This document shows, piece by piece, positions 3,405 through 60,357 of a DNA stretch of 64,000 nt (position 1 is the stretch's first letter; each line of letters opens with the position of its first letter). The notes under the pieces were generated by a model, which searched no databases, was not told the DNA's origin, and saw only the letters and a program-made list of their open reading frames with translations. The translations under genes and the position numbers were made by a program. Location: positions 1,821 through 65,820 of IMG/VR virus record IMGVR_UViG_3300045988_120893; one strand, given 5' to 3'. The stretch comes from a virus.

Positions 3405-4161
3405 CCATCTCCTTAACTAACTCAATGTAATCCTCTAATGCTTCTGCTTCTTTTTTGTATCTCATGCTTGTGCCGGTAAGTGCAAATTCTTTCAGTTTCG
3501 CCCTTCTCCTTATAACAGTGTCAAACACCATGGAACCGTAACGGCTTCTTATGTTTTCTTCCACTGACCGTTCCAGTGCATTACGCATATCTCTACACGT
3601 CAGTATGATACCTGCTATCTCTGCCCTTGTATGTCCATTTCCCTTTGCTTCCTTGATGTTATCAACGAATCGGTCTAACGCATCCATTCCGAACGCATCA
3701 GGCATTACAGGAATCATAATGTGGTCTGAACACACGATTGCATTCAGCACCAGGTCGCCAAGGTTCGGCGGGCAATCCATCAGAATATAATCATATTCAC
3801 TTTCAACAAGTCTCAGTGTGTTGTCCAGCTCCCGGATAGGGTTCTGAACCTTCTCCGTGTAGATATACCGACTGAATGTTACAAGCATATCGTCAGCTGG
3901 CAGCAGGTCAAGATTCTCCTTTGCACGGATGATATATCTGTCTGGCCGCTTCTCCTTGATGGCTTCAAGAACGGTATTGCCGCTGTTCTCATATATGCTT
4001 TTCTGCGTCACCATCTGCGTTGCGTTCCCCTGGCTGTCAAGATCGACAAGGAGAACCTTATACCCTGCGCCTGCCAATATGTCCGCCATAATAACTGTAG
4101 ACGTTGTTTTCCCTACTCCGCCCTTCTGAATTGCTACCATAATCCGTGTAGCCACTGGCAT
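3388..4161 (-). CDS. parA: ParA/Soj-type partition ATPase
   Basis: 257 aa. Deviant Walker A KGGVGKTT, DLDSQGN, Walker B-like YILMDCPP. Confidence 0.9.
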   Translation of the reverse strand: MPVATRIMVAIQKGGVGKTTSTVIMADILAGAGYKVLLVDLDSQGNATQMVTQKSIYENSGNTVLEAIKEKRPDRYIIRAKENLDLLPADDMLVTFSRYIYTEKVQNPIRELDNTLRLVESEYDYILMDCPPNLGDLVLNAIVCSDHIMIPVMPDAFGMDALDRFVDNIKEAKGNGHTRAEIAGIILTCRDMRNALERSVEENIRSRYGSMVFDTVIRRRAKLKEFALTGTSMRYKKEAEALEDYIELVKEMVERVE

Positions 4162-5209: not shown

Positions 5210-5707
5210 TTAGCTTTTTTTCTTGTTTTTGCATATCGTTACGGCAATCGTTTCTTTTGTTGTTCCCATCTCTTCCGCTATCTGTTGATGTGTCCATCCG
5301 GCATCTCTTAATGCTAATATTTTCCCGATATCAAGTTTGTTTCGTTTCTTCTTTTTTTCTTCTGGCTCCTGCGGATCCTGTGTCCCTTCTGATTCATCTG
5401 ATTCTGTCTCTTCCTTCACTTCTTCCTGTGCTTTCTCCAGAAAGTCGCCCATCATTGATGTTGGCACAACTAATTCCGGTTCTGTACTCACTTCTTCCGG
5501 TTCTGTGACAACTTCATGGTTGTTCGCATAATCCAGAATCTTATTCACGCAATCGGGATGGTAATCACGTTCCCACTGCTCACGTAAGAAGTCAGATACA
5601 ATATCTCCGGTTTCCGTATCAACCCTGTTCGCTATGAGCCTTATATTTTCTCCTTTAATTTCTTTCTTGCAAAAATCACACATAATAATTTTTTTAACCA
5701 TTTTCAT
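5210..5707 (-). CDS. Zn-ribbon/HTH DNA-binding protein (putative regulator)
   Basis: 165 aa. N-terminal CDFC...HPDC, acidic T/E/P linker, C-terminal HTH-like KILALRDAGWTHQQIAEEMGTTKETIAV. Confidence 0.55.
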   Translation of the reverse strand: MKMVKKIIMCDFCKKEIKGENIRLIANRVDTETGDIVSDFLREQWERDYHPDCVNKILDYANNHEVVTEPEEVSTEPELVVPTSMMGDFLEKAQEEVKEETESDESEGTQDPQEPEEKKKKRNKLDIGKILALRDAGWTHQQIAEEMGTTKETIAVTICKNKKKS

Positions 5708-5720
5708 ATACTCCTTCCTA

Positions 5721-6041
5721 TCATTCTCTCACATAAGAACGATATGCTGCTTCTTTCCGTTTCCTTATCTCCGCAACCCTCTGACTGCTTGCAAGTTCCG
5801 GATTGTCATGCTGCAGTTTCTGCCTTGCCCTTCTGACACTTTCAAATGGCGGAAATCCATAGTCCTTCATGTGGAGAAGGAACCTTGGAATTGACATACT
5901 ATCAATATCAACTCCGTTCTTCTGTCCATAACGCTTCAGCACCATGTAATAAAGGTAATTATCATCATCCCTTGATTTTCGGTCAGATTCCAATATTTCC
6001 TTCACTGTTTCCGTTGTTCCTTGTAATCTTTCTTTCGACAC
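5721..6041 (-). CDS. Hypothetical protein
   Basis: 106-aa ORF upstream of the Zn-ribbon/HTH gene. No motif recognised. Confidence 0.5.
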   Translation of the reverse strand: MSKERLQGTTETVKEILESDRKSRDDDNYLYYMVLKRYGQKNGVDIDSMSIPRFLLHMKDYGFPPFESVRRARQKLQHDNPELASSQRVAEIRKRKEAAYRSYVRE

Positions 6042-6086
6042 ACATTTTTCTCCTTTCCGGACTTTAATCTAATTCAATGGATTGTG

Positions 6087-8186
6087 TTACTTGTGAGGTT
6101 TTGTTTCGTTGTTTTCATTTGAGGTTTTTTCGAGGACTTCTTTTATTCCCTCTATGACATAAAGGAAGCATGGTAGGGCAATTCCGTTCCCCCAGAGCTT
6201 ATAAGCTGCGCCATCGGAATACGGATTTTGCAGCCATTTTATGATCTGTTTGTCCGTCTTTGGTTTCTTTGCTCCTGTTACTATCTTTCTATGTGTTTCA
6301 AAAACTTCTCGCCAAAAGGCTATATCATGACCTGTCGGTTCTTCTGTTTCCAGACCATCAAGCCACCAGTCCGGGAAGCCTTGCAATCTTGCACATTCAA
6401 TCGGTGTCAGCCGTCTTACTATGTAGGATGGTTCAACAATCAGATCAGTAGCATCTTTGTAATCTCTGCTTTTTAGGCAGCTTGCTTTTCCTGATTCATC
6501 ATATTTACCGAACGCTTTCATTTCAAATCCACATTGCTGTGCTACCGGATTGATATAATTCAATGATTGACCGCCGTTTGACTTTGCTTGTAATGTACCG
6601 CTCTTTTCTTCTATTGGAACATTATTTCTGCAATCGTAGGCTACTGCGTGTTGCTCTGTCGCATTCAGCGTGTACATAGTTTCTGATTCCTTATATCCAT
6701 CTCCACGGTGTGATGGTCGAGAGCCGTTACCTTCCACAACGCATATACCGCCTTGATTGCAAGCAGGATTACCACCATTGAGGTCTAATGTTCTTGCCGT
6801 GTCAGCTTCGTATATTCCGCTATGTGGATTATCGGATTTCATTGAATTTGAGCCATAAGAGCATATTCCATAAACTTTCTTTTGTGGCTCAAATAGCGTC
6901 TGTGGAACACCACAGCTCAATGTTGCTGATTTGTTTATCTGAAGCAATGCACCTTTACCGCCGCCCTCACATCCACTGCGTATCTGCATAGTGACTGGTG
7001 GATTGTCATTTTGAGGTTCAAATATACATTGTGTTCCTTTGTAATCTGTCCCAGTTAGAGTATTTGCAATCTCTTTTCCTACTGTGCAAGCATATTGTCT
7101 TTCATTCATACAATATGTTTCTTTCGGCAGACAATACAACCCTGTCTTTGCTCCTGATCCACCGCCTAATCCTTGTAATGTTACCGACTTTGTTGCGTTC
7201 ATCTGTATTCTGTCAGCAACTCTTCCAAAATCAACGGCATATTGTTCTTCTTTCGCCACGCAAAACTGGTTATCGCCCATGTTCGCTCTTAATGATCCAG
7301 TTTGGTTATCGTATGTATGTCCACCGGTTCGTGTTGCTGCCCCAGGTTCAAAACCTATGCAATGTTCGCTTGATGCATCAGTGCCTTTCGCAATATCTCC
7401 GGAAGTTGCTTGCCACGATTTTCGGCTCTCCGTAAAATTCCTTGACAAGCCTTTGCGCTTAAATAGTATTTCTCCGGCACATTGTCCTGCAAAATCTGCG
7501 ACAAGAGCGATTCGTCTACGTCTTTGGGGGACTCCCCAAAATTGAGCATCGAGAACTCTCCAGGCAATGGACCACCCATCACCCACGATGCATCCCTCTG
7601 TATTCCATTTTCCTTTCGGAGGTCTAGGAATAGTGGCGGTCTTGTCAACGACTTTCGCTGTTTCTTCAAGTACGGCTCGAAAATCTTCTCCTTTGTTGCT
7701 GCTGAATGCTCCTGTGACGTTCTCCCAGAGCATGAATCTAGGTCGAATATGCTCATCTGTCCTTCCACTTCGTAATCTTGCCAATTCATCAGCTTGTCTC
7801 ATCTCCTTTACTATTCTGATCTGCTCCATGAATAAACCGGAGCGTGTGTATTGCATTTCAGAACCACACTCCGGGCAAGTGTCCGTATCTTCATTGGCTA
7901 CCGATTTGTAACCACATTTTGGACACTCTTTGCTCATTCCTTTTCGTTTTCCTGCAACGGACATATCTTGACATGGGCTTCCGCCTGTTATGAGGTCTAC
8001 CGGCTCAAGGTCAGAGCCGGATATTGAGGATATATCTCCGTAATGTTTCATGTGGGGAAATCGTTTCGTGGTAACTCTTATTGGAAACGGTTCGATTTCA
8101 GAAGCCCATATCGGCTCCATTCCGCAAAGTGTGGCGGCTAATTCAAAGCCACCTGATCCTGAAAATAAACTTCCTATTCGAAACAA
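6087..8186 (-). CDS. DNA (cytosine-5) methyltransferase, large form
   Basis: 699 aa. Motif I FSGSGGFE, IV GGSPCQDMS, VI LWENVTGAF, VIII FWGVPQRRRRI, C-terminal RRLTPIECARLQGFP and WGNGIALP. About 360-aa variable region between VIII and IX. CxxC..CxxC insertion after motif IV. Confidence 0.9.
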   Translation of the reverse strand: MFRIGSLFSGSGGFELAATLCGMEPIWASEIEPFPIRVTTKRFPHMKHYGDISSISGSDLEPVDLITGGSPCQDMSVAGKRKGMSKECPKCGYKSVANEDTDTCPECGSEMQYTRSGLFMEQIRIVKEMRQADELARLRSGRTDEHIRPRFMLWENVTGAFSSNKGEDFRAVLEETAKVVDKTATIPRPPKGKWNTEGCIVGDGWSIAWRVLDAQFWGVPQRRRRIALVADFAGQCAGEILFKRKGLSRNFTESRKSWQATSGDIAKGTDASSEHCIGFEPGAATRTGGHTYDNQTGSLRANMGDNQFCVAKEEQYAVDFGRVADRIQMNATKSVTLQGLGGGSGAKTGLYCLPKETYCMNERQYACTVGKEIANTLTGTDYKGTQCIFEPQNDNPPVTMQIRSGCEGGGKGALLQINKSATLSCGVPQTLFEPQKKVYGICSYGSNSMKSDNPHSGIYEADTARTLDLNGGNPACNQGGICVVEGNGSRPSHRGDGYKESETMYTLNATEQHAVAYDCRNNVPIEEKSGTLQAKSNGGQSLNYINPVAQQCGFEMKAFGKYDESGKASCLKSRDYKDATDLIVEPSYIVRRLTPIECARLQGFPDWWLDGLETEEPTGHDIAFWREVFETHRKIVTGAKKPKTDKQIIKWLQNPYSDGAAYKLWGNGIALPCFLYVIEGIKEVLEKTSNENNETKPHK
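7355..7789 (-). CDS. Alternative-frame ORF embedded in the methyltransferase gene (possible overlapping gene)
   Basis: 144 codons, ATG start, same strand, different frame, covering MTase motifs VI-VIII. Translation is balanced and protein-like (GQMSIFDL..GRTSQEHSAATKEK..LSQILQDNVPEKYYLSAKACQGILRRAENRGKQLP). See finding. Confidence 0.35.
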   Translation of the reverse strand: MNWQDYEVEGQMSIFDLDSCSGRTSQEHSAATKEKIFEPYLKKQRKSLTRPPLFLDLRKENGIQRDASWVMGGPLPGEFSMLNFGESPKDVDESLLSQILQDNVPEKYYLSAKACQGILRRAENRGKQLPEILRKALMHQANIA

Positions 8187-8722
8187 AATACCAACCCTCC
8201 TGCTTTTTTTCTATTACCATTAGCACATTCAGATGCCTTTGAGTAATTCGTATTATTTTGCCTAGCCGCTTCCAATAATGTTTCATACTTTCCTATGAGT
8301 ACACCATCTTTATATACGGCTGTTTTTTTTCTTCCAAAATTCCGTTTTGCTCCCATGCTCCTATAATCTGTTTTTTCGTGAACCTTTTTTGCACGTTCTT
8401 TTGTAACTTCATTTTCTTGCTGCTCTTTATAAGTTGCCCATTCAAGATTTTCAACCCTGTTATCATCTCGTATTCCGTTTTTATGATTTACAGTAGGCTT
8501 GTTGTACGGATTCGGAATAAATGCTTGTGCAACAAGCCTATGTGCTTTTAGTGTTTTTCTTACTCCATCAATACTTATCACATAATATAGATATCCGTAT
8601 TTATCTGTCGATGGACGCAAAAACTTATTTCTTCTATTGCTATATAAACGTCCGTCATTTGTAATTGAATACAACCCGTCAAAGAGCGAACCCATCTTAA
8701 ACTGTTTTCGTGTTTCTTCCAT
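8174..8722 (-). CDS. HNH homing-endonuclease-like protein (NUMOD4 + HNH)
   Basis: 182 aa. YSITNDGRLYS (NUMOD4-like), LKAHRLVAQAF..VNHKNGIRDDNRVENLEWATYKEQ (HNH_3-like). AT-rich. 13-nt overlap with the MTase start. Confidence 0.8.
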   Translation of the reverse strand: MEETRKQFKMGSLFDGLYSITNDGRLYSNRRNKFLRPSTDKYGYLYYVISIDGVRKTLKAHRLVAQAFIPNPYNKPTVNHKNGIRDDNRVENLEWATYKEQQENEVTKERAKKVHEKTDYRSMGAKRNFGRKKTAVYKDGVLIGKYETLLEAARQNNTNYSKASECANGNRKKAGGLVFCFE

Positions 8723-20657: not shown

Positions 20658-21554
20658 TCAATCGTCATCTGTTACAGTTACGGAGATAGTGAAGGTCTTA
20701 CCTGTATCAACAGGATTAGGAACGATCTGAATGTATGTGATGACAGGGGCTGATGTGCTCATTCGTACCGTTCTTGTTACTGTTGATGATTTCCCTGCTG
20801 AATCCGTTGAAACAATCGTGATTGTATTAATTCCGGAAGTAAGATTAACAACCTTAGAGAAGGAACCGTCAGAATTTACGGTTGTTGTCTCTCCGTTGAT
20901 GGTAAGTGTTACCGGGGAAGATGTGACATCATTCGTTGTACCTGTCACAGTAACCGTTGACTTATTCGTGACAAGTCCTTCTGTCGGGTTTGTAACCGTA
21001 AGAACCGGTGGAACGGTATCTACAGTGAATGTTGTCGCACTTGTTTCTTTTTCGTTCCCATCGTTGTCAGATGCGTGTATCGTCAAGCTGTGTTCTCCAT
21101 CCGTAAGATAGCTTGACGGAGTGAATGAGCAGCTATAACCGTTAGTGATTGCTGTTTTCGTGATTCCTGATGTATAGGTGGTATCATCAATTTTCACAGA
21201 GATAGAATCCGGATCCACTCCTGAATGGCTGTCTAAAACAGTGAATTTGATTTCCGGTGTGTTATTTGTGATGGTAGATCCAGATGTCGGGCTTGTCAGA
21301 TTGATTGTCGGGGCTACTGTTTCTTTTACTACCAATTTCAGTTTTTCCCCGAATGTGCTGTCTGTCGTTGTTATTGTTGTTGTGTTTCCGGCATCATCCT
21401 CAGCTGTAATCGTTACTGGGTAATAATGCCCCGATTGTGTGTAAGATGTTTCTGAAGGTGCCGTTATGGTAGCTTCATACTTACCTGTATCGCTGTTAAG
21501 CACAAGTGTATGAGTTTGTCCGTTTATGATTGCACTTACTGTTTTTACTGCCAT
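20658..21554 (-). CDS. Ig-like-repeat structural protein
   Basis: 298 aa, T-rich, with repeated beta-sandwich-like units (TITAEDDAGNTTTI, LTIHASDNDGNEKETSATTFTVD, ITIVSTDSAGKSSTVTRTV). Confidence 0.6.
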   Translation of the reverse strand: MAVKTVSAIINGQTHTLVLNSDTGKYEATITAPSETSYTQSGHYYPVTITAEDDAGNTTTITTTDSTFGEKLKLVVKETVAPTINLTSPTSGSTITNNTPEIKFTVLDSHSGVDPDSISVKIDDTTYTSGITKTAITNGYSCSFTPSSYLTDGEHSLTIHASDNDGNEKETSATTFTVDTVPPVLTVTNPTEGLVTNKSTVTVTGTTNDVTSSPVTLTINGETTTVNSDGSFSKVVNLTSGINTITIVSTDSAGKSSTVTRTVRMSTSAPVITYIQIVPNPVDTGKTFTISVTVTDDD

Positions 21555-46136: not shown

Positions 46137-46640
46137 TCATCCGACAACATAGTAATCATCTGCGAGCATATCTTCTTGTGACGCGAGCCATCCTATCACA
46201 AGTGAACCGTCTGCTGCTTTCATGTCGATATGAGGGCATACATGCACCGAACCATAGGGATCTACATATGGGCCTGTCAGCTTTTCCTGAACGTCCTTTT
46301 TCAGCTGGTGGAAGTACGGATAGGAACCATCCTGCATATAGATGAACATTCCTTTTCCGTTCCATCCTTTCCTTGCGACCTTGAATCCCATCTTCATCAT
46401 TTCCAGAGCACCGCCAAAGGTCATTCCACCATTACATGAGCGGTATGCCCTTTCAAATACATCCTTCGGCGACCATGACACGTAATCATCTGAATCTACA
46501 TAGACAACCATATAACCTTCATCCTCCGGATTCTCATTCTCCGGCATCTTCCACCCACGGAACGCATTGTAATCACCCCTTGTCATTGGCTTTGCCTTAA
46601 TCAGTTTTGTCCCTATGTATTTCGCAAATTCTATTTCCAT
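46137..46640 (-). CDS. DUF2829-domain protein (Tad2-like) with extra N-terminal domain
   Basis: Track ORF 46137-46673. ATG 46638-46640 after GAAAGGAG. MTFGGALEMMKMGFKVARKGWNGKGMFIYMQ...PHIDMKAADGSLVIGWLASQEDMLADDYYVV matches the DUF2829 pattern. Confidence 0.65.
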   Translation of the reverse strand: MEIEFAKYIGTKLIKAKPMTRGDYNAFRGWKMPENENPEDEGYMVVYVDSDDYVSWSPKDVFERAYRSCNGGMTFGGALEMMKMGFKVARKGWNGKGMFIYMQDGSYPYFHQLKKDVQEKLTGPYVDPYGSVHVCPHIDMKAADGSLVIGWLASQEDMLADDYYVVG

Positions 46641-46642
46641 GG

Positions 46643-46909
46643 CTATTCTCCTTTCGCAACAAAATTCTGCCACTTCTTGTAGGCATCAAAATATGTTTCG
46701 TTCCTGTCTCCGTTATGAGTGATCTCATAGTACATGCCATCTGGTACATTCGTGCTTGCAAGTGCCTTGTGGTTATGTAATGTCTTGCAGTACCAGACGA
46801 TATACACATCATCCGGTGTGATTTCTGCCTTGTCCGTCTTTTCGCAATGGTTATTGAAATAATTTGCCACTTCATTTTTGCATAAGAACATAAATTCTTC
46901 ACTTGTCAT
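46643..46909 (-). CDS. Hypothetical protein
   Basis: 88-aa ORF downstream of the portal gene. Confidence 0.5.
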   Translation of the reverse strand: MTSEEFMFLCKNEVANYFNNHCEKTDKAEITPDDVYIVWYCKTLHNHKALASTNVPDGMYYEITHNGDRNETYFDAYKKWQNFVAKGE

Positions 46910-48456: not shown

Positions 48457-49326
48457 TTACAACTCCTTTCTTAAACGTGAAGAAATATAATCTTCAATAT
48501 CGCCTTGTTTTGTATGTCTACTGATTGTACTTCTTCCAACTCCTATCATTTTTGCCCAATCAGTAGCATTTTTAGTTACTCCATTTACAGTAATATGCAT
48601 TGTGGTTCTTCTATTATTCGCTTGTTCCTTTGATGTGGTCCATCTGCAATTACTAGGTTCGTAATTACCATCATTATTTATGCGGTCAATCGTTAGATCA
48701 TCAGCATATCCATGAGCCATTGCCCAGTCATAGAATGCTTGAAAGTCATGTATCCATTCATCACAGACAGTTATTCCACGTCCACCATAATTAGCGTAGT
48801 GTTCATCTTTTGTGTTATAGCATCTTTTTTTCATGGTTGCCCAAATGTTATAAAGTCTAGTTTTATGCAATCCATGTTTATAACTAGCACTATCTTTTCC
48901 ATATGGATAATTTATTTTCTCACGATTTGATATTGTTCCTTGTAAACAACCACAACTTTTAGTTCTACCTTTCGTTATTACCGAACTTCTTAAGCTAGTT
49001 GTTTTACCGCAATCACAAATACATTCCCAAATTGTTTCCCCTTTTTTACTTTTCCCACATGGCTTTATAACAGTCAGCATATTAAATTTTTTACCAGATA
49101 TATCTTTTGTTCTATTTTTGCCATGTGATTTTTCTATTCTTGTACACCCACAACTTTTAGTAAGATTTCTCTTTAAACTATTCGCAAATACTTCTGTATA
49201 ATTGCCACAATCACACTTACAAAGCCATTTTGCGTGTCCATTTTTTGAAGATTCGCATTCAGACACAACAACAAGCCTACCATACCTTTTACCTATCAAA
49301 TTTTCTTTCTTCATAATATAACCCAT
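48457..49326 (-). CDS. HNH/AP2-like endonuclease-type DNA-binding protein with duplicated Cys modules
   Basis: 289 aa. Two LxGKxFGxLxV..W.C.CDCG...SCGC units, YNIWATMKKRCYN..YGGRGITVCDEW, IDRINNDGNYEPSNCRWTTSKEQANNRR, C-terminal HTH. AT-rich. Confidence 0.65.
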   Translation of the reverse strand: MGYIMKKENLIGKRYGRLVVVSECESSKNGHAKWLCKCDCGNYTEVFANSLKRNLTKSCGCTRIEKSHGKNRTKDISGKKFNMLTVIKPCGKSKKGETIWECICDCGKTTSLRSSVITKGRTKSCGCLQGTISNREKINYPYGKDSASYKHGLHKTRLYNIWATMKKRCYNTKDEHYANYGGRGITVCDEWIHDFQAFYDWAMAHGYADDLTIDRINNDGNYEPSNCRWTTSKEQANNRRTTMHITVNGVTKNATDWAKMIGVGRSTISRHTKQGDIEDYISSRLRKEL

Positions 49327-49371: not shown

Positions 49372-51927
49372 TTAATGATTCCAATATGATTTTTTCTTAT
49401 TTCCTACTTCCGTTGGTGGAGCGGAATGTGTATTCATTTTTTCAAGCTCGTCATATCCGTTTGCACTGGCATCTGCCATATCTTTAAACTTCCTGTCTGG
49501 AAACCCGTCCATTTGAGCTAAATATGCTTGCGTCCACGGTGCATTAAGAACATCTACATTTCCTTTTTCTGAACCCTTTATTCCAATCCATTGAGCGGAC
49601 AAAGGCTCTGCTCTTGTCTCTTTGCTGCCGCTCTCCCTTACCATACTTACACTAAATCCAGATAGCATTTTTATATATTGTTCACTTTGGTCTTTACCAC
49701 TTTGCCCAGGATCTTGCGACATTCTTATTTTAATTTTTCTCCCAAATGAAGCTTTGTCTGCTTTTGCAGTATTAAGGACAGTCTGGCGCACATCACTTGA
49801 GTTCATTCTGCGATTAATTACATCACCAATAACAATTCTTCCGTTCTTGCGTTTACCGATAAGAACACCAGCTGTATAGGCTGGACCATCCTCAGGATTA
49901 TTGTTCTTTTTGTCCTCAGTACCGGCCAAATCCCATGCACGTACCCATCGAATAACATCATCTGGCAATTCATCAATGATTGTAGCCTTATTTCTAGGGA
50001 AGTACATACCGGCAGCAGGCCTAATCTTCCAGTTCCCGCCTAAAAGCCGTTCCTGCTCTACAAGAGGAAGTGATTTCAAGTTGGCAAGGTAAGACGGGTC
50101 ATTCCTCATGAGTATAGCGTTGTCGGAGAGCATGGACAGTATGAATGTGGCACTCTTCGGCGTGATAAGGTCAACATATTCTGTTCCGTTCCATCTGTAA
50201 AACTGTTTTGTTTCTGTGCATACATACAGAACACCGCTTTCACCATGTTCATGTATATACAGATTTCCTGTCTCACTGTCCTTTATGAAAAGTTCGTCCG
50301 GGTGCCTGTGCTTCTTATTTACTTCTCTTATCTCGCCATCAAACTGACGCTTCAAGAGCTCCATCCGGTTATCTCCCCAGATTACTTCTCCATTTATGCG
50401 GATAAACCATCGTATCTTCCCAGACCGCTCCGGTATCGCATAACCCGTGTCCTGGTTAATCCACCATGAGATAAATTCTGCAACCCAGCTGTCAGGGTCA
50501 GGGTTGGTTGTGGCTCTGATATATCCGGGTACACCGGAATCAGAACGGTTTCGGGAGAACATATACCAGAAAACATCCTCATTGAAATGTGTCAGCTCGT
50601 CAAAACAATTTTTATTGACTAACCCACTTTCAGTGATATAATGATTAGTGGTAGAAACTGTTAAATCAATAACCCATCTTTTACCTAAAGGAGTGATTTT
50701 ACATGAATGATATTCAATATCAACCCCTTCCGCAATCTGTTCTTCTCCCGTATACGGGTGGACATACCGTAATTTATGGTGGATATGTTTATGAACTTTG
50801 CCCTGACCATCCAAAAGCGAATCCTTTCGGTTTTGTACCACAACACCGTCTAGTATTAGAACGTCACCTTGGACGTTATCTCCTTTCAAGTGAACAGGTA
50901 CATCACATTGATATGGACCCCCTGAACAATGACCTCTCAAACCTTCAAATTCTTTCACGTTCTGAACATCTTGCGATACATCGTAAATTTGAACGTGAGC
51001 AGCGTTATCCTCCTTTAACTCATGATATTGTTTCTGATGCTCTTGCAGATGGTGGTCTAAAAGCCGCTGCAAAGGCTCTCGGTTGTTCGACTGAAACGAT
51101 TCGCAATAACTTCCCTTATCTTGTTGCGCCTTACAAAAGGAAATCTCCTGCAAACCTTGATCTTGATAGTTGGGTTGACAAAATAAAACCTCTTGCTGCT
51201 GATAAAAATATTGGTTATCGTGAGGCTGTTGCTGTTCTTGGCATATCTGCAAGGAGCATTCAACGTGTTTGTGAACGTCATAACATTGAGTGGGTGAAGA
51301 AATCAAAGGTTGGTGAGATTCATACAAAGTACACATATCGGAATAGGAAACCCAGCCACAAGAAGTAAGGATTTTATGCGTTGTTGAATGAATCTGCTTT
51401 TCTCCATATTCATTTTCAATTTCAACACAATCTTCTAATCTTCTATTACCTATTGCTGTAACAGGCATAGGTCCTTGTAAAGTTTCTACCATATCCCCTA
51501 TCTGTATATCTGATAGGGGTTTTTTAGTGCCATCTGCCATCCGTATTAAAGTAGATTCTTCACAACATATTAGTGGAATCTGTGAGCCTTGCCAGCCCAA
51601 ACAATCCTCGTACCGCTCCAAGTGTCCGAAAGATACCTTTGCACCGCTCGGAAAAACAAATTGAGGGTTCGGGGTCTTTTTCGGTGTGGCTTGAAACTGT
51701 GGAAGAAAACCCATGGCAGAATCCCAAAGTCCACCGTTGGTAAATATCTGCGTGTTATTCCTACGGAAGATAACAGAATTGAATCGGGGGTTTCCGCTAT
51801 GCCGTAACTGTTCCATGAGCAGAGCATAAGTTTTCCCTCCACCGGCGGCTCCACCGAATATTACAATATCTGCGATTGACGATAAGAATTGTTCTTGTCT
51901 CGGCTGTGGCTTGATTACAGTTGACAT
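49372..51927 (-). CDS. terL: Terminase large subunit interrupted by an intein
   Basis: 851 aa. Walker A GGAAGGGKT (aa 25-33). IPLIC|C...intein...KN|CFDELTHF (Walker B-like). C-terminal nuclease half (RAWDLAGTE, SQDPGQSGK). Confidence 0.85.
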   Translation of the reverse strand: MSTVIKPQPRQEQFLSSIADIVIFGGAAGGGKTYALLMEQLRHSGNPRFNSVIFRRNNTQIFTNGGLWDSAMGFLPQFQATPKKTPNPQFVFPSGAKVSFGHLERYEDCLGWQGSQIPLICCEESTLIRMADGTKKPLSDIQIGDMVETLQGPMPVTAIGNRRLEDCVEIENEYGEKQIHSTTHKILTSCGWVSYSDMCTLYESHQPLISSPTQCYDVHKHVECSLQICQEQQQPHDNQYFYQQQEVLFCQPNYQDQGLQEISFCKAQQDKGSYCESFQSNNREPLQRLLDHHLQEHQKQYHELKEDNAAHVQIYDVSQDVQNVKEFEGLRGHCSGGPYQCDVPVHLKGDNVQGDVLILDGVVVQNRKDSLLDGQGKVHKHIHHKLRYVHPYTGEEQIAEGVDIEYHSCKITPLGKRWVIDLTVSTTNHYITESGLVNKNCFDELTHFNEDVFWYMFSRNRSDSGVPGYIRATTNPDPDSWVAEFISWWINQDTGYAIPERSGKIRWFIRINGEVIWGDNRMELLKRQFDGEIREVNKKHRHPDELFIKDSETGNLYIHEHGESGVLYVCTETKQFYRWNGTEYVDLITPKSATFILSMLSDNAILMRNDPSYLANLKSLPLVEQERLLGGNWKIRPAAGMYFPRNKATIIDELPDDVIRWVRAWDLAGTEDKKNNNPEDGPAYTAGVLIGKRKNGRIVIGDVINRRMNSSDVRQTVLNTAKADKASFGRKIKIRMSQDPGQSGKDQSEQYIKMLSGFSVSMVRESGSKETRAEPLSAQWIGIKGSEKGNVDVLNAPWTQAYLAQMDGFPDRKFKDMADASANGYDELEKMNTHSAPPTEVGNKKKSYWNH
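50615..50642 (+). promoter_or_regulatory. Near-consensus promoter for the antisense HNH gene
   Basis: TTGACT (50615-50620), 16 nt, TGaTATAAT (50634-50642). AAAGGAG lies 9 nt before ATG 50703. Embedded antisense in the intein block F/G codons. Confidence 0.6.
50703..51368 (+). CDS. HNH homing endonuclease encoded antisense inside the terL intein
   Basis: 221 aa. GGYVYELCPDHPKANPFGFVPQHRLVLERHLGRYLLSSEQVHHIDMDPLNNDLSNLQILSRSEHLAIH (HNH_3-like). Two HTH-like modules (LKAAAKALGCSTETIRNNF; YREAVAVLGISARSIQRVCERH). Confidence 0.8.
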   Translation: MNDIQYQPLPQSVLLPYTGGHTVIYGGYVYELCPDHPKANPFGFVPQHRLVLERHLGRYLLSSEQVHHIDMDPLNNDLSNLQILSRSEHLAIHRKFEREQRYPPLTHDIVSDALADGGLKAAAKALGCSTETIRNNFPYLVAPYKRKSPANLDLDSWVDKIKPLAADKNIGYREAVAVLGISARSIQRVCERHNIEWVKKSKVGEIHTKYTYRNRKPSHKK

Positions 51928-51964: not shown

Positions 51965-52498
51965 CTAAACTTCCAAATCGTCAAAATCATCTTCATCCTG
52001 CCTGTGGTTCTCCGGAAGATAAATCTGGACAGCGTTCATTGCCTGTCCGCCATCCCGGTTCTCAATAACCTCTCCGACATCTCCACGGCTGATACGTTCC
52101 AGCTTGCTTGCAACATCAACCATCTTCGAAACGTCAGATGCCTTGATATCTTCCACCGGAATCTTATTCAATGCCTGTGCAGCCTTCACTATCATTGCGG
52201 ATGCCACTGTTGCATGGTTCTTCCGCATTTTTTTTATGTCTTTGATCTGCTGCAATCTGTTCAGCCTGTCCACCTCTGCATCCCAGGCTGTCACACGTTC
52301 TACCCAGTGGTTCTTTTTGCTCCAGATTCCAAGATTAGGCTTTGTCTTACCAAGAGCATCCGCTACCTTCTGGATGGATCTCTCTGCACCCATATCCCTG
52401 TATAAAGCAAATGCTTCCCATTGCTTAGGTGTTTCCCCCGGCTGCCGCTCCCATGGTTTCAAATCTTCTGGTGCTTCCTGTGTTTTTTTTCTTGCCAT
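51965..52498 (-). CDS. terS: Terminase small subunit
   Basis: 177 aa. HTH-like RSIQKVADALGKTKPNLGIWSKKNHW. Immediately upstream of terL. Confidence 0.7.
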   Translation of the reverse strand: MARKKTQEAPEDLKPWERQPGETPKQWEAFALYRDMGAERSIQKVADALGKTKPNLGIWSKKNHWVERVTAWDAEVDRLNRLQQIKDIKKMRKNHATVASAMIVKAAQALNKIPVEDIKASDVSKMVDVASKLERISRGDVGEVIENRDGGQAMNAVQIYLPENHRQDEDDFDDLEV

Positions 52499-52502
52499 GC
52501 TA

Positions 52503-53132
52503 TCACTCCTTTCCTATCCTGATAAGTTCGTTTCTTTTTAATCGTGTGACGGTAAATGATGGTTCCCATGTGGCAAACCGTTCATCCTGTGGTATTCTGT
52601 CCGCTTCTCCACGGTCTATAAGGTCCACTGAATCACAAAGCATCTGTACCCCCATCGGGAATATCTCTTTCCATAAATCGCTATAACTCCATGACCGATC
52701 TATGAATACCGGTTTCTGCATGAGAATGTCTCCACCATCAACTTTGTTATTAAGCCAGTATACGGATGCCCCGGTGATAGCGTCACCCATTGCAACCGCC
52801 CACCTTACTGCATCCTGCCCCCGGTGTCGGGGAAGCAAGGAAGGATGGAAACCTATCCCACCATACCTTGCCTTTTCAATTACTTTTTCGGATATAAACC
52901 AGTGAGAATGTGCGGCAACGATTAAGTCTGTGTTATCCGGTATATCATTTGACGTTAGCTTATCCATATCGGATATAACCGGGATACCTAATTTCATTGC
53001 TGGACCTATGACTTTATCAAAATATTTTTCTTGTGGAGGTGGGGCAACACCTACGATGGTATGCCCACGATCATATAATTCTTTCAAAACGACTTTCCCA
53101 AAACTACGCTGGCCGCATAGGAATATATTCAA
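52503..53132 (-). CDS. Formyltransferase-family enzyme (Fmt/PurN/ArnA N-domain-like)
   Basis: 209 aa. LIVAAHSHWFIS, GGIGFHPSLLPRHRGQDAVRWAV, VDGGDILMQ correspond to the N/H/D catalytic regions of Formyl_trans_N. Confidence 0.7.
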   Translation of the reverse strand: MNIFLCGQRSFGKVVLKELYDRGHTIVGVAPPPQEKYFDKVIGPAMKLGIPVISDMDKLTSNDIPDNTDLIVAAHSHWFISEKVIEKARYGGIGFHPSLLPRHRGQDAVRWAVAMGDAITGASVYWLNNKVDGGDILMQKPVFIDRSWSYSDLWKEIFPMGVQMLCDSVDLIDRGEADRIPQDERFATWEPSFTVTRLKRNELIRIGKE

Positions 53133-54286
53133 CTAATATCACCATACTTTCCGATATATTTGAATCCTTGTACAGCTCGGAAGTGACCTCCATAACCAAC
53201 ACCATTCATCTTTGAGCCTTTTTTACGGCGGCTTTTCTGAATGCTCATTGCACTTTTCTTTTTGTTGTCACCATAAAGCATTGCACTTGTTTGTATCCAA
53301 TTCTTGCTACGTCTTAAAGCCATGCATAGCTGCGGATGTGAAGTATGGAAGAATGTCGCATATTTCCGGTTGCAACGTCCATTTCCGTCCATGTGATAGC
53401 TGCATACCCATTCAAGGAAACGGAATCCTACACCTGCACCCTGCCACTCAGGCATGGTTACAAGCCTTGTGGCACGATACGCATTAGCTGTGAACATAGG
53501 TGCAACGGCAACATGGCAAGCAAGCTCACCATCAACAGTACCTACAAAATATTCTGCTGCTGGCGGCATAGGTAAATCTAAATAGTAATGCGGTTTAAAA
53601 AACTTCCAGTAACTTGAGTCCGTCTTGAAAATTTCAAGCCGTATTTTCGGTCTTTGCCTGGGATTCCCCCTTTCAAAACGCTTTGAAGCGGTGTCAAATA
53701 CCCAATCCGGCTGTACCCAATCTAATATGTCATAGTGAGGTGTCAGCAATACCACTTTTCCATTTGGATTCGTTCTTCTCCATGCCTTTTGAAATGCCTG
53801 CGAACCGATTTTCGCAATCTGGCGGTCTACAACGGAAGTGAACTCGTCAACAACCGCTTTTTCCGGCTTTTCGCAAATCAGCCTTGCAAGTCCCGCCCGG
53901 AACTGCTCACCATTAGAAAGTACTCTGAACGTCCTTAGCCATGCTGGAACATCACCAAGACCTACATTAGCCAATGCCCCCGTTACCTCGTTAAAATCAC
54001 CATCAGGAGCGATTTCGTCAATGATTGGTTTGTTTGGATGCCATCCCTTTGTGTAGTCGTGTATAAGGTTCTCACCATCAAATATTGTTTTCCCTATGGA
54101 AGTCTTTCCGCTCCCAGATGGCCCGACTACAACACCAATCTGCCAATCACCGGATAAGTCCATGGTGGCTTCAAGGTCAAAGTTACATCCGTTTTCGGCA
54201 TTGAAAAGGCTTTTTACCCTTGCCGCCCTGTAACTGTTAAAATCATCAACACGGTTATGTACTTCAATCTTTGTCAGTTTATTCAT
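53129..54286 (-). CDS. ABC-type ATPase fused to a GNAT-like acyltransferase domain
   Basis: 385 aa. Walker A GPSGSGKTS, signature-like LSNGEQFR, Walker B AVVDEFTS. C-terminal half has MPEWQGAGVGFRFLEW (GNAT motif-A-like). Confidence 0.6.
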   Translation of the reverse strand: MNKLTKIEVHNRVDDFNSYRAARVKSLFNAENGCNFDLEATMDLSGDWQIGVVVGPSGSGKTSIGKTIFDGENLIHDYTKGWHPNKPIIDEIAPDGDFNEVTGALANVGLGDVPAWLRTFRVLSNGEQFRAGLARLICEKPEKAVVDEFTSVVDRQIAKIGSQAFQKAWRRTNPNGKVVLLTPHYDILDWVQPDWVFDTASKRFERGNPRQRPKIRLEIFKTDSSYWKFFKPHYYLDLPMPPAAEYFVGTVDGELACHVAVAPMFTANAYRATRLVTMPEWQGAGVGFRFLEWVCSYHMDGNGRCNRKYATFFHTSHPQLCMALRRSKNWIQTSAMLYGDNKKKSAMSIQKSRRKKGSKMNGVGYGGHFRAVQGFKYIGKYGDIS

Positions 54287-55032
54287 GTAGTCACAACCTT
54301 ACATTCGTAACCATCTGAATAGAGACGTTCATATACTTCTTTCTGTTCCGCTTCGTCCTTGCATATTACAATAACTCCATACTGCTCTTTATAGTTGAAA
54401 TTTGTTGTGGTTGTTATCTGAGGATCGTCTGTAGATGGAAATGTAGACGGTTCTGTGGTTATTTCTGTGGGTTGTTCTGTTTGTGTTTCTGTGGTATCTT
54501 CTGTGCCTGTGCTTTCCGGCTCTGTGTGTTTCTTCCCATGGTCAGTATCGCTTGAAAAACTTTCAATGACCCTGAGTGCTTCATCATCATTGATTAAATC
54601 GTCTATCTCATGGTACTCATATCCTGTCAGCATAACGTCAATGTCTGTGTTGTTGATGTCATTCAGGATATCAATGAGCAAATCTTCATCAATACTGCTC
54701 AGTTCTGAAATGCGGTTATCAGCTACCAGATCCGCCCATTCTTCCGCTTCGTTTGCATAATCCTGATAATCTACAGGCACATGAGTTTCTTTCAGAAGTA
54801 TTGCGGCTTGCAACCGCCCATGTCCGGACACGACAAAACCGCTCCTCTTACTTACGGTAATCGGTTTTCTCCATCCCTGAGCCTTAATGACCTGTGCCAG
54901 TATCTCAATCTGACGTTCCGGATGCATATTCGGGTTACGTGGGTTTGGTATTACTTTCATAATTTCTACGATTTCGTCATGTGAGCAGTAGACCGGAATA
55001 TCTCCAATCATTGCTTTGCATTGAATACTCAA
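54283..55032 (-). CDS. ParB N-terminal-domain (ParB-like nuclease) protein without methylase domain
   Basis: 249 aa. NPRNPNMHPERQIEILAQVIKAQGWRKPITVSKRSGFVVSGHGRLQAA. T/E/P linker. C-terminal YGVIVICKDEAEQKEVYERLYSDGYECKVV module. Confidence 0.7.
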   Translation of the reverse strand: MSIQCKAMIGDIPVYCSHDEIVEIMKVIPNPRNPNMHPERQIEILAQVIKAQGWRKPITVSKRSGFVVSGHGRLQAAILLKETHVPVDYQDYANEAEEWADLVADNRISELSSIDEDLLIDILNDINNTDIDVMLTGYEYHEIDDLINDDEALRVIESFSSDTDHGKKHTEPESTGTEDTTETQTEQPTEITTEPSTFPSTDDPQITTTTNFNYKEQYGVIVICKDEAEQKEVYERLYSDGYECKVVTT

Positions 55033-55044
55033 TATTCATCCGTC

Positions 55045-55263
55045 CTATTCTTCACTAGTACCATCACTAGGTTGTTGTTCTACGATTCCATATATCCTGA
55101 TTTCATCTTTTCCGGATTCCGTTTTTTCTGCAGGGACAAGCTCTATCTTTCCTACATTCTGAACGCTTTCTGACAGCTGTATTTTTTCTATAAGCTGGTA
55201 TCCTGTATAACCAGTAGCCTTATTCGTGTAATTCCTTGCCGCTGCAAGTGTAAGAAGGTCCAT
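55045..55263 (-). CDS. Small hypothetical protein
   Basis: 72-aa ORF between the two ParB-like genes. Confidence 0.4.
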   Translation of the reverse strand: MDLLTLAAARNYTNKATGYTGYQLIEKIQLSESVQNVGKIELVPAEKTESGKDEIRIYGIVEQQPSDGTSEE

Positions 55264-55277
55264 GGTTCCTCACATCC

Positions 55278-55484
55278 TTACTGTTCATACCAGATTTCGT
55301 CATCCTCGCTGTAACAGAAGATTTTCCTTGTGTCCATCTCATAAAACTCAGATGCGTTTCCTATTTTTCTTCCATCAAATTCACGTATAGGCTTTTCATC
55401 CGTGCTCTTTCCGTAAAGTTCAAGGCATTTCCTGTTCACGTATCTTCCGTATCTTCTCAATGTCACCATGGCATCAAGGGTCAC
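55278..55484 (-). CDS. Small hypothetical protein
   Basis: 68-aa ORF between the two ParB-like genes. Confidence 0.4.
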   Translation of the reverse strand: MTLDAMVTLRRYGRYVNRKCLELYGKSTDEKPIREFDGRKIGNASEFYEMDTRKIFCYSEDDEIWYEQ

Positions 55485-55488
55485 ATCC

Positions 55489-56265
55489 TTATTTTTTTAT
55501 GGGTCTCGGCTTTCTTAGTTTGAATATATCGCTTTCCATGTCATTTTCCCTCGCCCATGCAGTAATCAGTTCCATGTATCCGTATTCTTTTTGTTCCCTT
55601 ACACACGTACATCCCATATTCCCAGTCTCATAGACATAATGGCTTATGATGCTGTCACAAATAGGGTCTTCTTCACCAACAATAAATCTATGCTCTCCAA
55701 GGTTCCAGATATCTCCGGCTTTAGAAAACATGGATGGTACTTTTATTTCTTCCGGAGTTTCCTCTTCTTCCTCTCCTTCAAGATCAGAAAGTATATTGTC
55801 TATATCTTCTGAATCATATCCGGTAAGTGCAAGCATATCTTCATTCTCGAATGAATCTATCATCTCTGATAGAATCTGATTATCAATTTCAGAAAGTTCC
55901 GCAAGCCGGTTGTCAGCAATAAGGTCAGCGTATTCTTCGTCCTGGCTGGAATATTCCTGATAGTCCACCGGAACATTCGACCATCCGGCAAGTTTGGCCG
56001 CCTGCAATCTTCCATGTCCTTTGACGATACATCCGCTCCTGTTCGAAACAGTGATAGGCTGTCTCCATCCTGTTTTCTCTATGATGCTTTTGAGAAGTTC
56101 GATCTGTTCTTGTGGGTGTTGGTTTGGGTTGAGTGGGTTCGGTTTGAGGTTCTTTGTAGGCACGATGTCGTCGTGCGAACAGAAGATAGGGATACCATCA
56201 TTTGATACTGCTTTTGGCTCTGCTGAGGTTCTGTAATCAATATCTTCTATTTTTTTACCATCCAT
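55489..56265 (-). CDS. ParB N-terminal-domain protein with a degenerate methylase start
   Basis: 258 aa. NPLNPNQHPQEQIELLKSIIEKTGWRQPITVSNRSGCIVKGHGRLQAA. Then GDIWNLGEHRFIVGE resembles the start of ParB-fused N6/N4 methylases, but no DPPY-type motif follows. Confidence 0.65.
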   Translation of the reverse strand: MDGKKIEDIDYRTSAEPKAVSNDGIPIFCSHDDIVPTKNLKPNPLNPNQHPQEQIELLKSIIEKTGWRQPITVSNRSGCIVKGHGRLQAAKLAGWSNVPVDYQEYSSQDEEYADLIADNRLAELSEIDNQILSEMIDSFENEDMLALTGYDSEDIDNILSDLEGEEEEETPEEIKVPSMFSKAGDIWNLGEHRFIVGEEDPICDSIISHYVYETGNMGCTCVREQKEYGYMELITAWARENDMESDIFKLRKPRPIKK

Positions 56266-58797: not shown

Positions 58798-59382
58798 TCA
58801 CTCCTTCACATAATTATTCATGTATGTATCTATCTTGCTTAGGTATGCAAGTCCATACTTGTTGTTTATTTTTATTTCCCATTCTGGCATCAGTTCATCC
58901 GCTGATACGGATGCTTTCCCAGGTGTTGTCCATGACATTCCATGCCAGATAACGGATGCTTTTTTTCTTTTGTCCCTGATCCACATATTTCTTGCGGCAG
59001 ACCAGAACGCCCATGGCACAAGGAAGAACCGCTCCAGATTAAACGATACAAGCACTGCTCCGAATCCTGCACCAGACTCTCCGACAAAATCATTAAGGAA
59101 CTTTGCCTGGTGGTCTTTCACCTCATTAAAGCTGATTCTACTGCTTTTCGTGTGTTTCGCTTCGATTGCTACCGGTATACCCCGATATCTACCCATGAAG
59201 TCAACAGGTGCTTTCCTGTCAACCTTGCAGCTTATTACCTTGCCCTGTCTGTTTCTCAAAGGGATAAACTCTGTTGGTACTTTCTCAACTACCGCTATCC
59301 CTGCCGACCTGTACCTGGCATTGGAATACTCCACAAATTCTTCAAAAGCCATGCCACGTCCAGCGTAACTAATGTTTTTCAT
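58798..59382 (-). CDS. recU: Holliday-junction resolvase RecU
   Basis: Track ORF 58798-59415. ATG 59380-59382 after GGAGGT. GRGMAFEEFVEYSN..IAVVEKVPTEF..VDFMGRYRGIPVAIEAKHT...DHQAKFL parallels B. subtilis RecU (NRGM.LE..Y..IAVIHKKPT..DYNG.Y.G...FEAKET..HQ). Confidence 0.8.
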   Translation of the reverse strand: MKNISYAGRGMAFEEFVEYSNARYRSAGIAVVEKVPTEFIPLRNRQGKVISCKVDRKAPVDFMGRYRGIPVAIEAKHTKSSRISFNEVKDHQAKFLNDFVGESGAGFGAVLVSFNLERFFLVPWAFWSAARNMWIRDKRKKASVIWHGMSWTTPGKASVSADELMPEWEIKINNKYGLAYLSKIDTYMNNYVKE

Positions 59383-59672
59383 TTTTTTACCTCCAATGCT
59401 TTTTCTATATCCCAACCTCTTTTTATTCTCCCATACAGTGTATGGTAGTTAATTCCAACTATATCTGACAACTGTTTAAGAGTTTTACTTTCTCCGTTAT
59501 ATTCATAAACCAGATTGTAACTCACATTATTTGCTTGCTCCTTCATCGTTGCCCATCGGCAGTTTCCACAATCACATTTACACAGAAACCTCATTCTGCC
59601 ATCATATGGCCTATCGCATTCTATGATAACAACGAGTTTTCCAAATCGTTCTCCTATCAAATCTTTTTCCAT
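59379..59672 (-). CDS. Shortened paralogue of the HNH/AP2-like protein 48457-49326
   Basis: Track ORF 59379-59837. ATG 59670-59672 is preferred because the upstream part overlaps the SLT gene. MEKDLIGERFGKLVVI..RFLCKCDCGN|CRWATMKEQANN joins the first Cys module directly to the NCRW..KEQANN end. Confidence 0.5.
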   Translation of the reverse strand: MEKDLIGERFGKLVVIIECDRPYDGRMRFLCKCDCGNCRWATMKEQANNVSYNLVYEYNGESKTLKQLSDIVGINYHTLYGRIKRGWDIEKALEVKK

Positions 59673-59676
59673 TCTT

Positions 59677-60357
59677 TCACATCTCTCTTTCTGATTTTTT
59701 AGAAAATTTTTCATATCTTTCAAGCACTCCCTGGCTGTAAGAAGTGGAATAAACTTCATCTCTCCATAGCCTTTTCGCACAAGGCTCTCCCATGTTGTAT
59801 GCCATGAGTGCAAGGTTTTTGTATTCATATTTTTCAAGATATTCTCTGATTATTTCAATTCCGCAATAGGTGTTGTCGTATGGGTTCGTGAAGTCCTTTT
59901 CTCCATACTTTTCTTCAAAATAACCATGGACGCTTTCATTGATCTGCATGAGTCCATAATCTTCTGTGACACTTACGGCCATTGGGTCATAATTGCTTTC
60001 CTGCTCTATGATTGCGATAACCAGGCAATAGAAATCATCATCATATCCGCATTCTTTATAAATGAATTTTTGAAGTTCGTCGCTTAATGGAATATCAAGA
60101 TTCTGTGGTAATATTTCCGGTGGTGGCCCAGTGTGGATTTCTTCTTGTGGTTTTATTTCTTTTTCCGTGGATTGTTCTGTGGGTGTTTCCTTTGGTTCTT
60201 CTGCTTGTGTTTTTTCCTGATGTTCTTCTACCTGTTCCTCTTGATAGGTATTTTTCTCTTTCGCACAATACCTGTCTTCCATGACAAGGAACAAAGTGAA
60301 CATGGGTATAAGTATAACCATTCCAACACATATCATGTAATTTTTAAATTTTCTCAT
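59677..60357 (-). CDS. Membrane-anchored lytic transglycosylase (SLT domain)
   Basis: 226 aa. N-terminal TM (MICVGMVILIPMFTLFLVM), T/E/P linker, AIIEQESNYDPMAVS..DYGLMQI. Confidence 0.75.
   Translation of the reverse strand: MRKFKNYMICVGMVILIPMFTLFLVMEDRYCAKEKNTYQEEQVEEHQEKTQAEEPKETPTEQSTEKEIKPQEEIHTGPPPEILPQNLDIPLSDELQKFIYKECGYDDDFYCLVIAIIEQESNYDPMAVSVTEDYGLMQINESVHGYFEEKYGEKDFTNPYDNTYCGIEIIREYLEKYEYKNLALMAYNMGEPCAKRLWRDEVYSTSYSQGVLERYEKFSKKSEREM

Follow-up and report, generated by a model that had tools for sequence, protein, structure and literature searches.

A gene cassette that matches no characterised system was found in the 64,000-nucleotide stretch of viral DNA analysed here (positions 1,821 to 65,820 of IMG/VR record IMGVR_UViG_3300045988_120893; hereafter the window). 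The window is part of a metagenomic contig of 65.9 kb (ENA ERZ27229705 k119_372428) and belongs to a temperate tailed phage, which encodes a serine integrase (1514-2911). The conserved core of the cassette consists of a mini-domain of 38 amino acids, a fusion of an ABC-type ATPase with a GNAT domain (ABC-GNAT) and a formyltransferase-like protein (FT), and a ParB domain is present as an optional, fused module with a proposed targeting role. The same gene order was found in 171 loci, drawn from phages in GenBank, contigs in IMG/VR and genomes in GTDB, which shows that the arrangement is not due to chance. A reading of the window from its letters only had proposed that these genes form a DNA-modification module, and the neighbourhood survey establishes the cassette as a conserved functional unit. 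The genomic context suggests that this unit might be a late-expressed, ATP-dependent system for acyl or formyl modification of phage DNA, used for anti-restriction. We prefer this reading to the alternatives considered but regard it as evenly balanced between true and false, and we are far less certain of any particular chemistry than of DNA as the target.

All six minus-strand open reading frames (ORFs) listed in the sequence-only reading, as well as the start/stop overlaps that it described, were confirmed in the window. Together with their domains and the two terminase genes they are:

55489-56265, minus strand: ParB-A, 258 amino acids
55278-55484, minus strand: small ORF between the ParB genes, 68 or 63 amino acids, no family match
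55045-55263, minus strand: small ORF between the ParB genes, 72 amino acids, no family match
54283-55032, minus strand: ParB-B, 249 amino acids, ParB N-domain and C-terminal mini-domain
54286-54402, minus strand: mini-domain, amino acids 211-249 of ParB-B (phrog_28816, E=3e-14)
53129-54286, minus strand: ABC-GNAT, 385 amino acids (phrog_11143, that is PHROG 11143, E=2e-152)
53657-54286, minus strand: ABC-type ATPase domain, amino acids 1-210 of ABC-GNAT (Pfam ABC_tran, 1.2e-6)
53129-53656, minus strand: GNAT domain, amino acids 211-385 of ABC-GNAT (Pfam Acetyltransf_7 and Acetyltransf_1)
52503-53132, minus strand: FT, 209 amino acids (Formyl_trans_N, E=1.2e-20)
51965-52498, minus strand: terS (phrog_6299, 3e-33)
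49372-51927, minus strand: terL, 851 amino acids (phrog_979, 3e-138; Terminase_6N and Terminase_6C)

The stop codon of ParB-B and the start codon of ABC-GNAT overlap by 4 nucleotides (ATGA), and so do the stop of ABC-GNAT and the start of FT (TTGA). To judge from these overlaps, the cassette genes are probably translationally coupled. The ATG of terS lies 4 nucleotides past the FT stop codon with an AGGAG ahead of it, and no terminator-like site was found on the coding strand. With terS and terL directly downstream on the same strand, the cassette has a pre-packaging late-operon context. Both small ORFs between the ParB genes (55045-55484) had been predicted as genes in the source contig too. 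They are not conserved together with the cassette and have no match in Pfam, PHROGs, NCBIfam or PADLOC.

Distribution and genomic contexts of the cassette

The family is represented by more than 6600 protein clusters at 90% identity and occurs in viral contigs and species genomes, at least 596 of each. The hosts belong to at least nine phyla: Bacillota, Bacteroidota, Pseudomonadota, Actinomycetota, Verrucomicrobiota, Planctomycetota, Spirochaetota, Chloroflexota and Acidobacteriota. ABC-GNAT is 50-83% identical across these phyla, which is unusually conserved for a phage protein and points to a universal substrate.

An ORF with the mini-domain is found directly upstream of ABC-GNAT in 155 of the 171 loci, and FT directly downstream in 124 of the 149 loci with room for it. 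The mini-domain is fused to a ParB N-domain in 59 loci and is a free protein of 40-60 amino acids in 92, including gp28 of Burkholderia phage phiE255 and a Porphyromonas protein labelled "acr candidate". The two forms are found in different places. The ParB-fused form has a terminase within 4 kb downstream in at least 31 of 47 loci, with differing terminase families, and constitutes genes 1-3 ahead of the terminase in Gordonia phages. Methylase genes often adjoin this form; a Clostridia prophage, for example, has methylase and ParB-methylase genes beside it. The free-mini form, found in Mu-like and Bacteroidota prophages, comes behind the tail-fibre genes as the last part of the late operon and often borders the end of the prophage; in 48 of 54 loci the terminase is far away.

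In 28-29 of the free-mini loci, the start of the mini-gene is overlapped or adjoined by the end of a Com-type zinc-ribbon ORF, and six of seven such ORFs tested were above the threshold for the Mu Com family (PF10122). One of them is an unannotated ORF in phiE255 (5632-5865 of locus L002, approximately 21308-21541 of NC_009237; PF10122, 3.4e-16), which lies between the tail-fibre assembly gene and gp28 and overlaps the gp28 start. These 28-29 relatives thus occupy a Mom-type slot with an overlapping Com gene, and the window has the ParB/terminase form instead. No Mom homologue was found in any of the 171 loci with jackhmmer. Because the cassette is found in both the ParB-methylase slot and the com-mom slot, it replaces, judged by slot, two pre-packaging DNA-modification functions: the ParB-fused methylases and Mom.

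FT is dispensable in a sister subfamily where ParB and ABC-GNAT precede the terminase (Pasteurella Pmp13, Lactococcus P335, Streptococcus phiNIH1.1 and Javan141). ABC and GNAT are separate ORFs, without FT, in phiNIH1.1 (L086, 3387-5391), Javan141 (L093, 2965-4967) and P335 (L005, 4345-6838). Downstream of the FT-less variant, both Streptococcus phages that were examined encode an ASCH-domain protein; Orf26 of P335 (236 amino acids) has the same position and no Pfam match. The ASCH family includes N4-acylcytosine amidohydrolases (PMC6972931), and ASCH proteins have also been reported as erasers of N4-acetylcytidine (ac4C) in tRNA (bioRxiv 10.64898/2026.02.27.708502).

Some variants of the free-mini form were seen in passing. 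One and the same mini-protein of 41 amino acids was found in 289 blocks of the contig collection (Bacteroidota prophages L174-L176, genes at 6001-7740), always followed by ABC-GNAT and a short FT of 162 amino acids that lacks the N-terminal ~50 residues. These Bacteroidota cassettes adjoin tail-fibre genes and Mtd_N-type genes (diversity-generating-retroelement target) at the prophage edge. In a Mu-like prophage of Sulfurimicrobium the last prophage gene, after FT, encodes a nucleotidyltransferase (L091, 9825-10427; NTP_transf_8, 1e-46).

Properties of the cassette proteins

The mini-domain is the small C-terminal module of ParB-B and always ends at the final residue of the protein. It has the consensus F.YK.QYGVIVIC.DE.EQ..Y..L...GY.CKVVTV and a predicted beta-alpha-beta structure. 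A word-index search gave 18 matches only and an exhaustive profile search was needed, in which the domain was found in 1060 clusters (50% identity) and invariably formed the very C-terminus of the protein. The lengths of these proteins are bimodal (40-130 and 176-260 amino acids), and ParB_N is the sole recurrent N-terminal fusion partner. A role for the mini-domain as acyl acceptor or carrier was considered and rejected because it has no invariant nucleophile: no Lys, Ser or Cys is invariant, the C-terminal Lys is often Arg and the Cys is variable.

ABC-GNAT is a full-length member of phrog_11143, which is annotated as function unknown in PHROG. The sequence-only reading described a complete ABC ATPase fused to a GNAT-like domain, and this description is borne out by motifs, Pfam and Foldseek, placing the protein in both the ABC ATPase and the GNAT superfamily. 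The ATPase domain has Walker A (GPSGSGKT), the signature LSNGEQ, Walker B (VVDEF, D147-E148), a D-loop (SVVD) and an H-loop (H184); a canonical Q-loop Gln was not identified in it. The ABC motifs and the CoA-binding motif of the GNAT domain (PEWQGAGVG) are invariant in an alignment of 66 homologues, as are two blocks specific to the family, FHTSHP and the C-terminal strand GYGGHFRAVQGF.

The AlphaFold2 (AF2) model of the whole protein has a pLDDT of 82, and its top Foldseek matches are all ABC nucleotide-binding domains (E ~1e-8). The C-terminal domain was therefore modelled alone to expose the GNAT part (pLDDT 83). All 50 matches listed for this model in the PDB are GNATs, including Naa60, GCN5, RimI and SpeG, with a probability of 1.0 and a TM score of about 0.5. 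Pfam GNAT families match 17 of 17 family members, and a profile search of the PDB with the GNAT domain gave marginal matches only (E ~0.4). The protein is basic throughout the family, with a median isoelectric point (pI) of 9.4 and a basic insert at amino acids 339-366, between the last two GNAT strands.

The likeness to TmcA and Mom that had been suggested was not supported. A P-loop ATPase and a GNAT domain are joined in one polypeptide, as in the RNA cytidine N4-acetyltransferases TmcA and NAT10, but the ATPase is of ABC type and not RecD-like, no TmcA-type Pfam domain such as DUF1726 was found, there is no tRNA-binding domain and the GNAT domain is of a generic kind. None of the cassette proteins matches the Mom family PF25680, for which Mu Mom itself scores 2.4e-75. 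No permease partner for the ABC ATPase was found in the window or in the annotated and Pfam-scanned neighbourhoods inspected, and thus the label "ABC transporter" is unsupported. Membership of a PADLOC defence system was also rejected, as the matches were limited to the ParB part of a methylase model and 37 residues around the ABC signature of mad3.

FT scores 74.5 for Formyl_trans_N (PF00551, cut-off 26.1). Among proteins of solved structure, it matches best the N-terminal hydrolase domain of 10-formyltetrahydrofolate dehydrogenase (FDH/ALDH1L1, 2e-28) and next Fmt (2e-18), and PurN and the sugar formyltransferases are more distant, with sugar N-formyltransferases and ArnA at E 1e-10 to 1e-12. 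The His and Asp regions were previously described as intact. This is correct for His96 and Asp132, which are conserved together with the folate loop HPSLLPRHRG, but FT lacks the catalytic Asn that would stand two residues ahead of the His (the position is Gly in the window and not conserved in the family), and so does the FDH hydrolase domain. The loop (HPS-LP-RG), the His and the Asp are invariant across 63 cassette-linked FTs. FT does not have the makeup of Fmt, since it ends at amino acid 209 without a C-terminal tRNA-binding beta-barrel domain; it scores 88.5 for TIGR00460, below the cut-off of 201.5, and covers profile positions 1-203 of 315. It is a catalytic domain of ~200 amino acids only, and unlike ALDH1L1 it has no carrier or dehydrogenase domain. 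Neither DpdA nor genes for preQ0 synthesis were found among the ~40 window ORFs scanned, which are a subset of the window ORFs, or beside the cassette in the annotated relatives inspected.

ParB-A matches Pfam ParB_N (PF02195, E=1.9e-6, score 28.2, cut-off 26.3). ParB-B is weak in Pfam and matches the N-terminal parts of the ParB-methylase family phrog_498 (E=7e-39) and of the PADLOC model MTase_II (4e-22) as well as phrog_620 (2e-32) and TIGR00180 (2.7e-5). Its ParB/Srx-type N-domain (amino acids ~20-150) is followed by an acidic Thr-rich linker and the mini-domain. The motif GHGRLQAA is present in both proteins, and the assignment to the ParB/Srx N-domain, with its GxxR(xxA) motif, holds. 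The two are paralogues with 51% identity across 152 amino acids and different tails.

The C-terminal part of ParB-A opens like a ParB-fused methylase (GDIWNLGEHRF), and it had been stated that neither protein carries a methylase. This proved right: no methylase domain, N6_N4_Mtase Pfam match or DPPY motif was found in either, and only the N-terminal third of phrog_498 is matched (the matches end at position 207 or 187 of 633, that of ParB-A covering positions 14-207). The inclusion of ParB-A in the module was not supported, as it is a paralogue of ParB-B that nothing ties to the core, and its membership of the cassette is uncertain. From its profile matches, the N-domain of ParB-B belongs to the subfamily that phages fuse to DNA methylases, and ParB-B is proposed to be the DNA-targeting subunit of the cassette.

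Possible function and alternative explanations

If the cassette modifies DNA, ABC-GNAT would dimerise on ATP, as ABC domains do, and its basic GNAT domain might move an acyl group from a coenzyme A (CoA) thioester onto the exocyclic amine of a base, the base and the group being presumed. The mini-domain would be an obligatory small subunit, and the ParB fusion, as a ParB clamp, could tether the enzyme to DNA just before packaging. FT would use 10-formyl-tetrahydrofolate, either to make formyl-CoA as donor for the GNAT domain or to formylate the product of the GNAT step. The supply of formyl-CoA is preferred because FT resembles the FDH domain and has no acceptor-binding domain. The FDH (ALDH1L1) domain passes its formyl group to a phosphopantetheine thiol. 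Relatives without FT would just acetylate, from acetyl-CoA. The modification would presumably shield phage DNA from host nucleases in an anti-restriction role.

In its widest form the proposal is that the cassette places N-formyl or N-acyl groups on the exocyclic amines of DNA bases, as a new class of enzymatic modification, with ABC-GNAT using a donor from its formyl-folate partner (possibly formyl-CoA), and that it has repeatedly displaced Mom and the ParB-fused methylases across most bacterial phyla as anti-restriction. This wide form is put forward tentatively and is rather to be doubted than believed.

The DNA reading is consistent with the strict synteny of the three genes, the ParB fusion and the Com-controlled Mom slot in relatives. 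It is also in line with the invariance of the catalytic motifs of the ATPase and GNAT domains and of the loop, His and Asp of FT, with the basic nature of ABC-GNAT (pI 9.4), with the location of the ParB-fused form ahead of terminase genes, with the high identity between phyla and with the ASCH neighbour of the FT-less variant in Streptococcus. Mom of phage Mu makes N6-carbamoylmethyl-adenine, and Com is its translational activator. Relatives of the cassette are found in the same slot as com-mom, at the end of the late operon after the tail fibres, and with a Com gene that overlaps the first cassette gene as com overlaps mom. The cassette differs in that it has no Mom-family protein and consists of three proteins that would need ATP and probably folate; the copy in the window has the ParB and terminase context and no Com.

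The ParB-fused phage methyltransferases of phrog_498 type share the subfamily of the ParB N-domain and the position before the terminase with the cassette, and ParB-A keeps the first motif of their methylase part. ParB-B differs from them by carrying, in place of a methylase domain, the adaptor of 38 amino acids of the ABC-GNAT system. ParB fusions to methylases and acetyltransferases have been catalogued (PMC12704722), and experiments have demonstrated the activation of phage DNA thymine dioxygenases by ParB-like proteins (PMC13229309). In the latter case (5mYOX) a ParB-like protein without a classical DNA-binding domain partners a phage DNA-modifying enzyme. The chemistry of the cassette is unrelated to it, and ParB is here linked through a fused adaptor and is dispensable in many relatives.

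Several observations weigh against DNA as the target. ParB is absent in 92 of the 171 loci, and no report of N-acylated DNA bases in phages was found in the literature searched. No similarity was detectable between the GNAT domain and Mu Mom with hhalign (probability 0.2), and neither Mom nor TmcA/NAT10 is among the 50 matches listed by Foldseek for the PDB and for viral structures (BFVD). The nearest structural neighbours of the GNAT domain are protein and polyamine acetyltransferases and not nucleic-acid enzymes. The site of the free-mini form, after the tail fibres at the prophage end, is typical also of lysogenic-conversion morons, and control by Com indicates tight late regulation and not DNA chemistry. 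Moreover, a gene for a C5 cytosine methylase (6087-8186) means that the phage in the window already methylates DNA. The sequence-only reading held that the methylase has been replaced; this is supported for the architecture of the ParB fusion and is overstated for the phage as a whole, because that C5 methylase is encoded elsewhere in the same genome.

The folds of the closest GNATs, the protein N- and polyamine acetyltransferases Naa60, GCN5, RimI and SpeG, would fit an enzyme that acylates a phage or host protein, a metabolite or a signal, for example in anti-defence, with ATP and formyl-folate as co-factors and a virion protein, the ParB partner or a defence protein as target. ParB/Srx folds are found outside DNA biology too (PMC12704722), and the phage in the window has other anti-defence genes such as a Tad2-like gene. 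We consider this unlikely, since the one candidate acceptor that is conserved together with the cassette is the mini-domain, which has no invariant Lys, Ser or Cys to be acylated. In addition, the very high conservation across phyla argues against a host protein target that is specific to a lineage, and the slot shared with methylases and Mom favours DNA.

A target in RNA is judged to be somewhat more improbable still. The ATPase and GNAT domains would then acetylate cytidine in tRNA or rRNA and an Fmt-like enzyme would formylate aminoacyl-tRNA, so that late translation is reprogrammed or tRNAs are shielded from anticodon-nuclease defences. ATPase plus GNAT is the logic of TmcA, methionyl-tRNA formyltransferase is the closest relative of FT after FDH, and a basic pI suits any nucleic acid. 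The ASCH neighbours in Streptococcus phages belong to the family reported as tRNA ac4C erasers (bioRxiv 10.64898/2026.02.27.708502). However, the ATPase is of ABC type and not the RecD-like module of TmcA, which like NAT10 is missing from the 50 structural matches listed. A tRNA-binding domain is found in neither protein, FT being without the C-terminal domain of Fmt, and both the ParB fusion and the com-mom slot speak for DNA.

A lysogenic-conversion moron that N-formylates or N-acetylates amino sugars of the envelope (O-antigen or wall polymers), or ABC transport, would agree with the detectable relationship of FT to sugar N-formyltransferases and ArnA (E 1e-10 to 1e-12), with the location of the free-mini form after the tail fibres at the prophage end and with the historical annotation as ABC transporter (PMC2920897). 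No permease, glycosyltransferase or flippase gene is linked to the cassette, though, and no membrane partner is predicted. The same cassette, with 50-83% identity, is found in phages of Gram-positive, Gram-negative and actinobacterial hosts and thus with all envelope types. Its apparent co-translation with terS/terL in the window, the Com control in Mu-like phages and the ParB fusion do not fit either, and these readings are very improbable. The direct junction of the ParB-fused class with terS/terL would be expected of a packaging accessory in which ParB and the ABC ATPase aid the terminase in recognition or processing of DNA ends. Yet the free-mini core is far from the terminase in 48 of 54 loci, and the intact active sites of the GNAT domain and the folate enzyme have no role in packaging, which leaves hardly any credence for this explanation. 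The readings as transporter and as packaging factor were rejected on these grounds, the lack of a permease and the mostly distant terminase in free-mini loci.

No description of the cassette was found in the full-text literature searched. The only mention in it, from 2010, interpreted gp29 of phiE255 as an ABC transporter and gp30 as a formyltransferase without a known role (PMC2920897), and database labels for the cassette proteins include "unknown function", "ABC transporter", "GNAT family N-acetyltransferase" and "tRNA-methyltransferase". Should DNA prove to be the target, the few kinds of DNA modification in phages would be joined by an acyl/formyl chemistry that uses ATP, CoA and folate. 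There would also be an explanation for a gene set that thousands of prophages carry, those of gut Bacteroidota and Firmicutes and those of Burkholderia, Pseudomonas and Gordonia. Base-labile marks of this kind would escape standard DNA preparation and sequencing, and they could affect restriction, CRISPR targeting, host range in phage therapy and metagenomic sequencing. The hypothesis is directly testable because cultured carriers exist: phiE255, Pseudomonas phage Komp_PAO1_1, more than 10 Gordonia phages and Porphyromonas prophages. Even if the target is not DNA, the cassette would be a defined three-subunit system, its adaptor domain for tethering to ParB would be new, and the Com regulator would have a second client.

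Other genes in the window

Outside the cassette, the following genes were noted:

1514-2911, plus strand: large serine recombinase
3388-4161, minus strand: ParA-like partition ATPase
6087-8186, minus strand: C5 cytosine DNA methylase, 699 amino acids, with a Pfam match split in two by a large insert
8174-8722, minus strand: HNH_3/NUMOD4 endonuclease, next after the C5 methylase
46137-46673, minus strand: Tad2-like (Thoeris anti-defence 2) domain protein (PF11195, E=5e-25), amid head-morphogenesis genes
48457-49326, minus strand: HNH-endonuclease-like
50703-51368, plus strand: HNH_3 endonuclease ORF, 221 amino acids
57115-57432, minus strand: HNH-endonuclease-like
59379-59837, minus strand: HNH-endonuclease-like

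The genome looks heavily colonised by homing endonucleases. One of the HNH-like genes (289 amino acids, phrog_374, 6e-97) sits between terL and the portal gene. In terL, an insertion of ~310 amino acids cuts the Terminase_6N match into two pieces. By eye the insertion has intein-like ends (beginning with CCEESTLIRMADG... and closing with ...GLVNKN before a C); the Pfam scan shows no Hint domain in it and did not confirm the intein. Its Q/H-rich middle is exactly antisense to the HNH_3 endonuclease ORF at 50703-51368, and with both strands open an intein, an intron and the insertion of a homing endonuclease are all conceivable. The ParA-like and serine recombinase genes are near one contig end, and the phage may, given these two genes, be kept as a plasmid-prophage or integrated.

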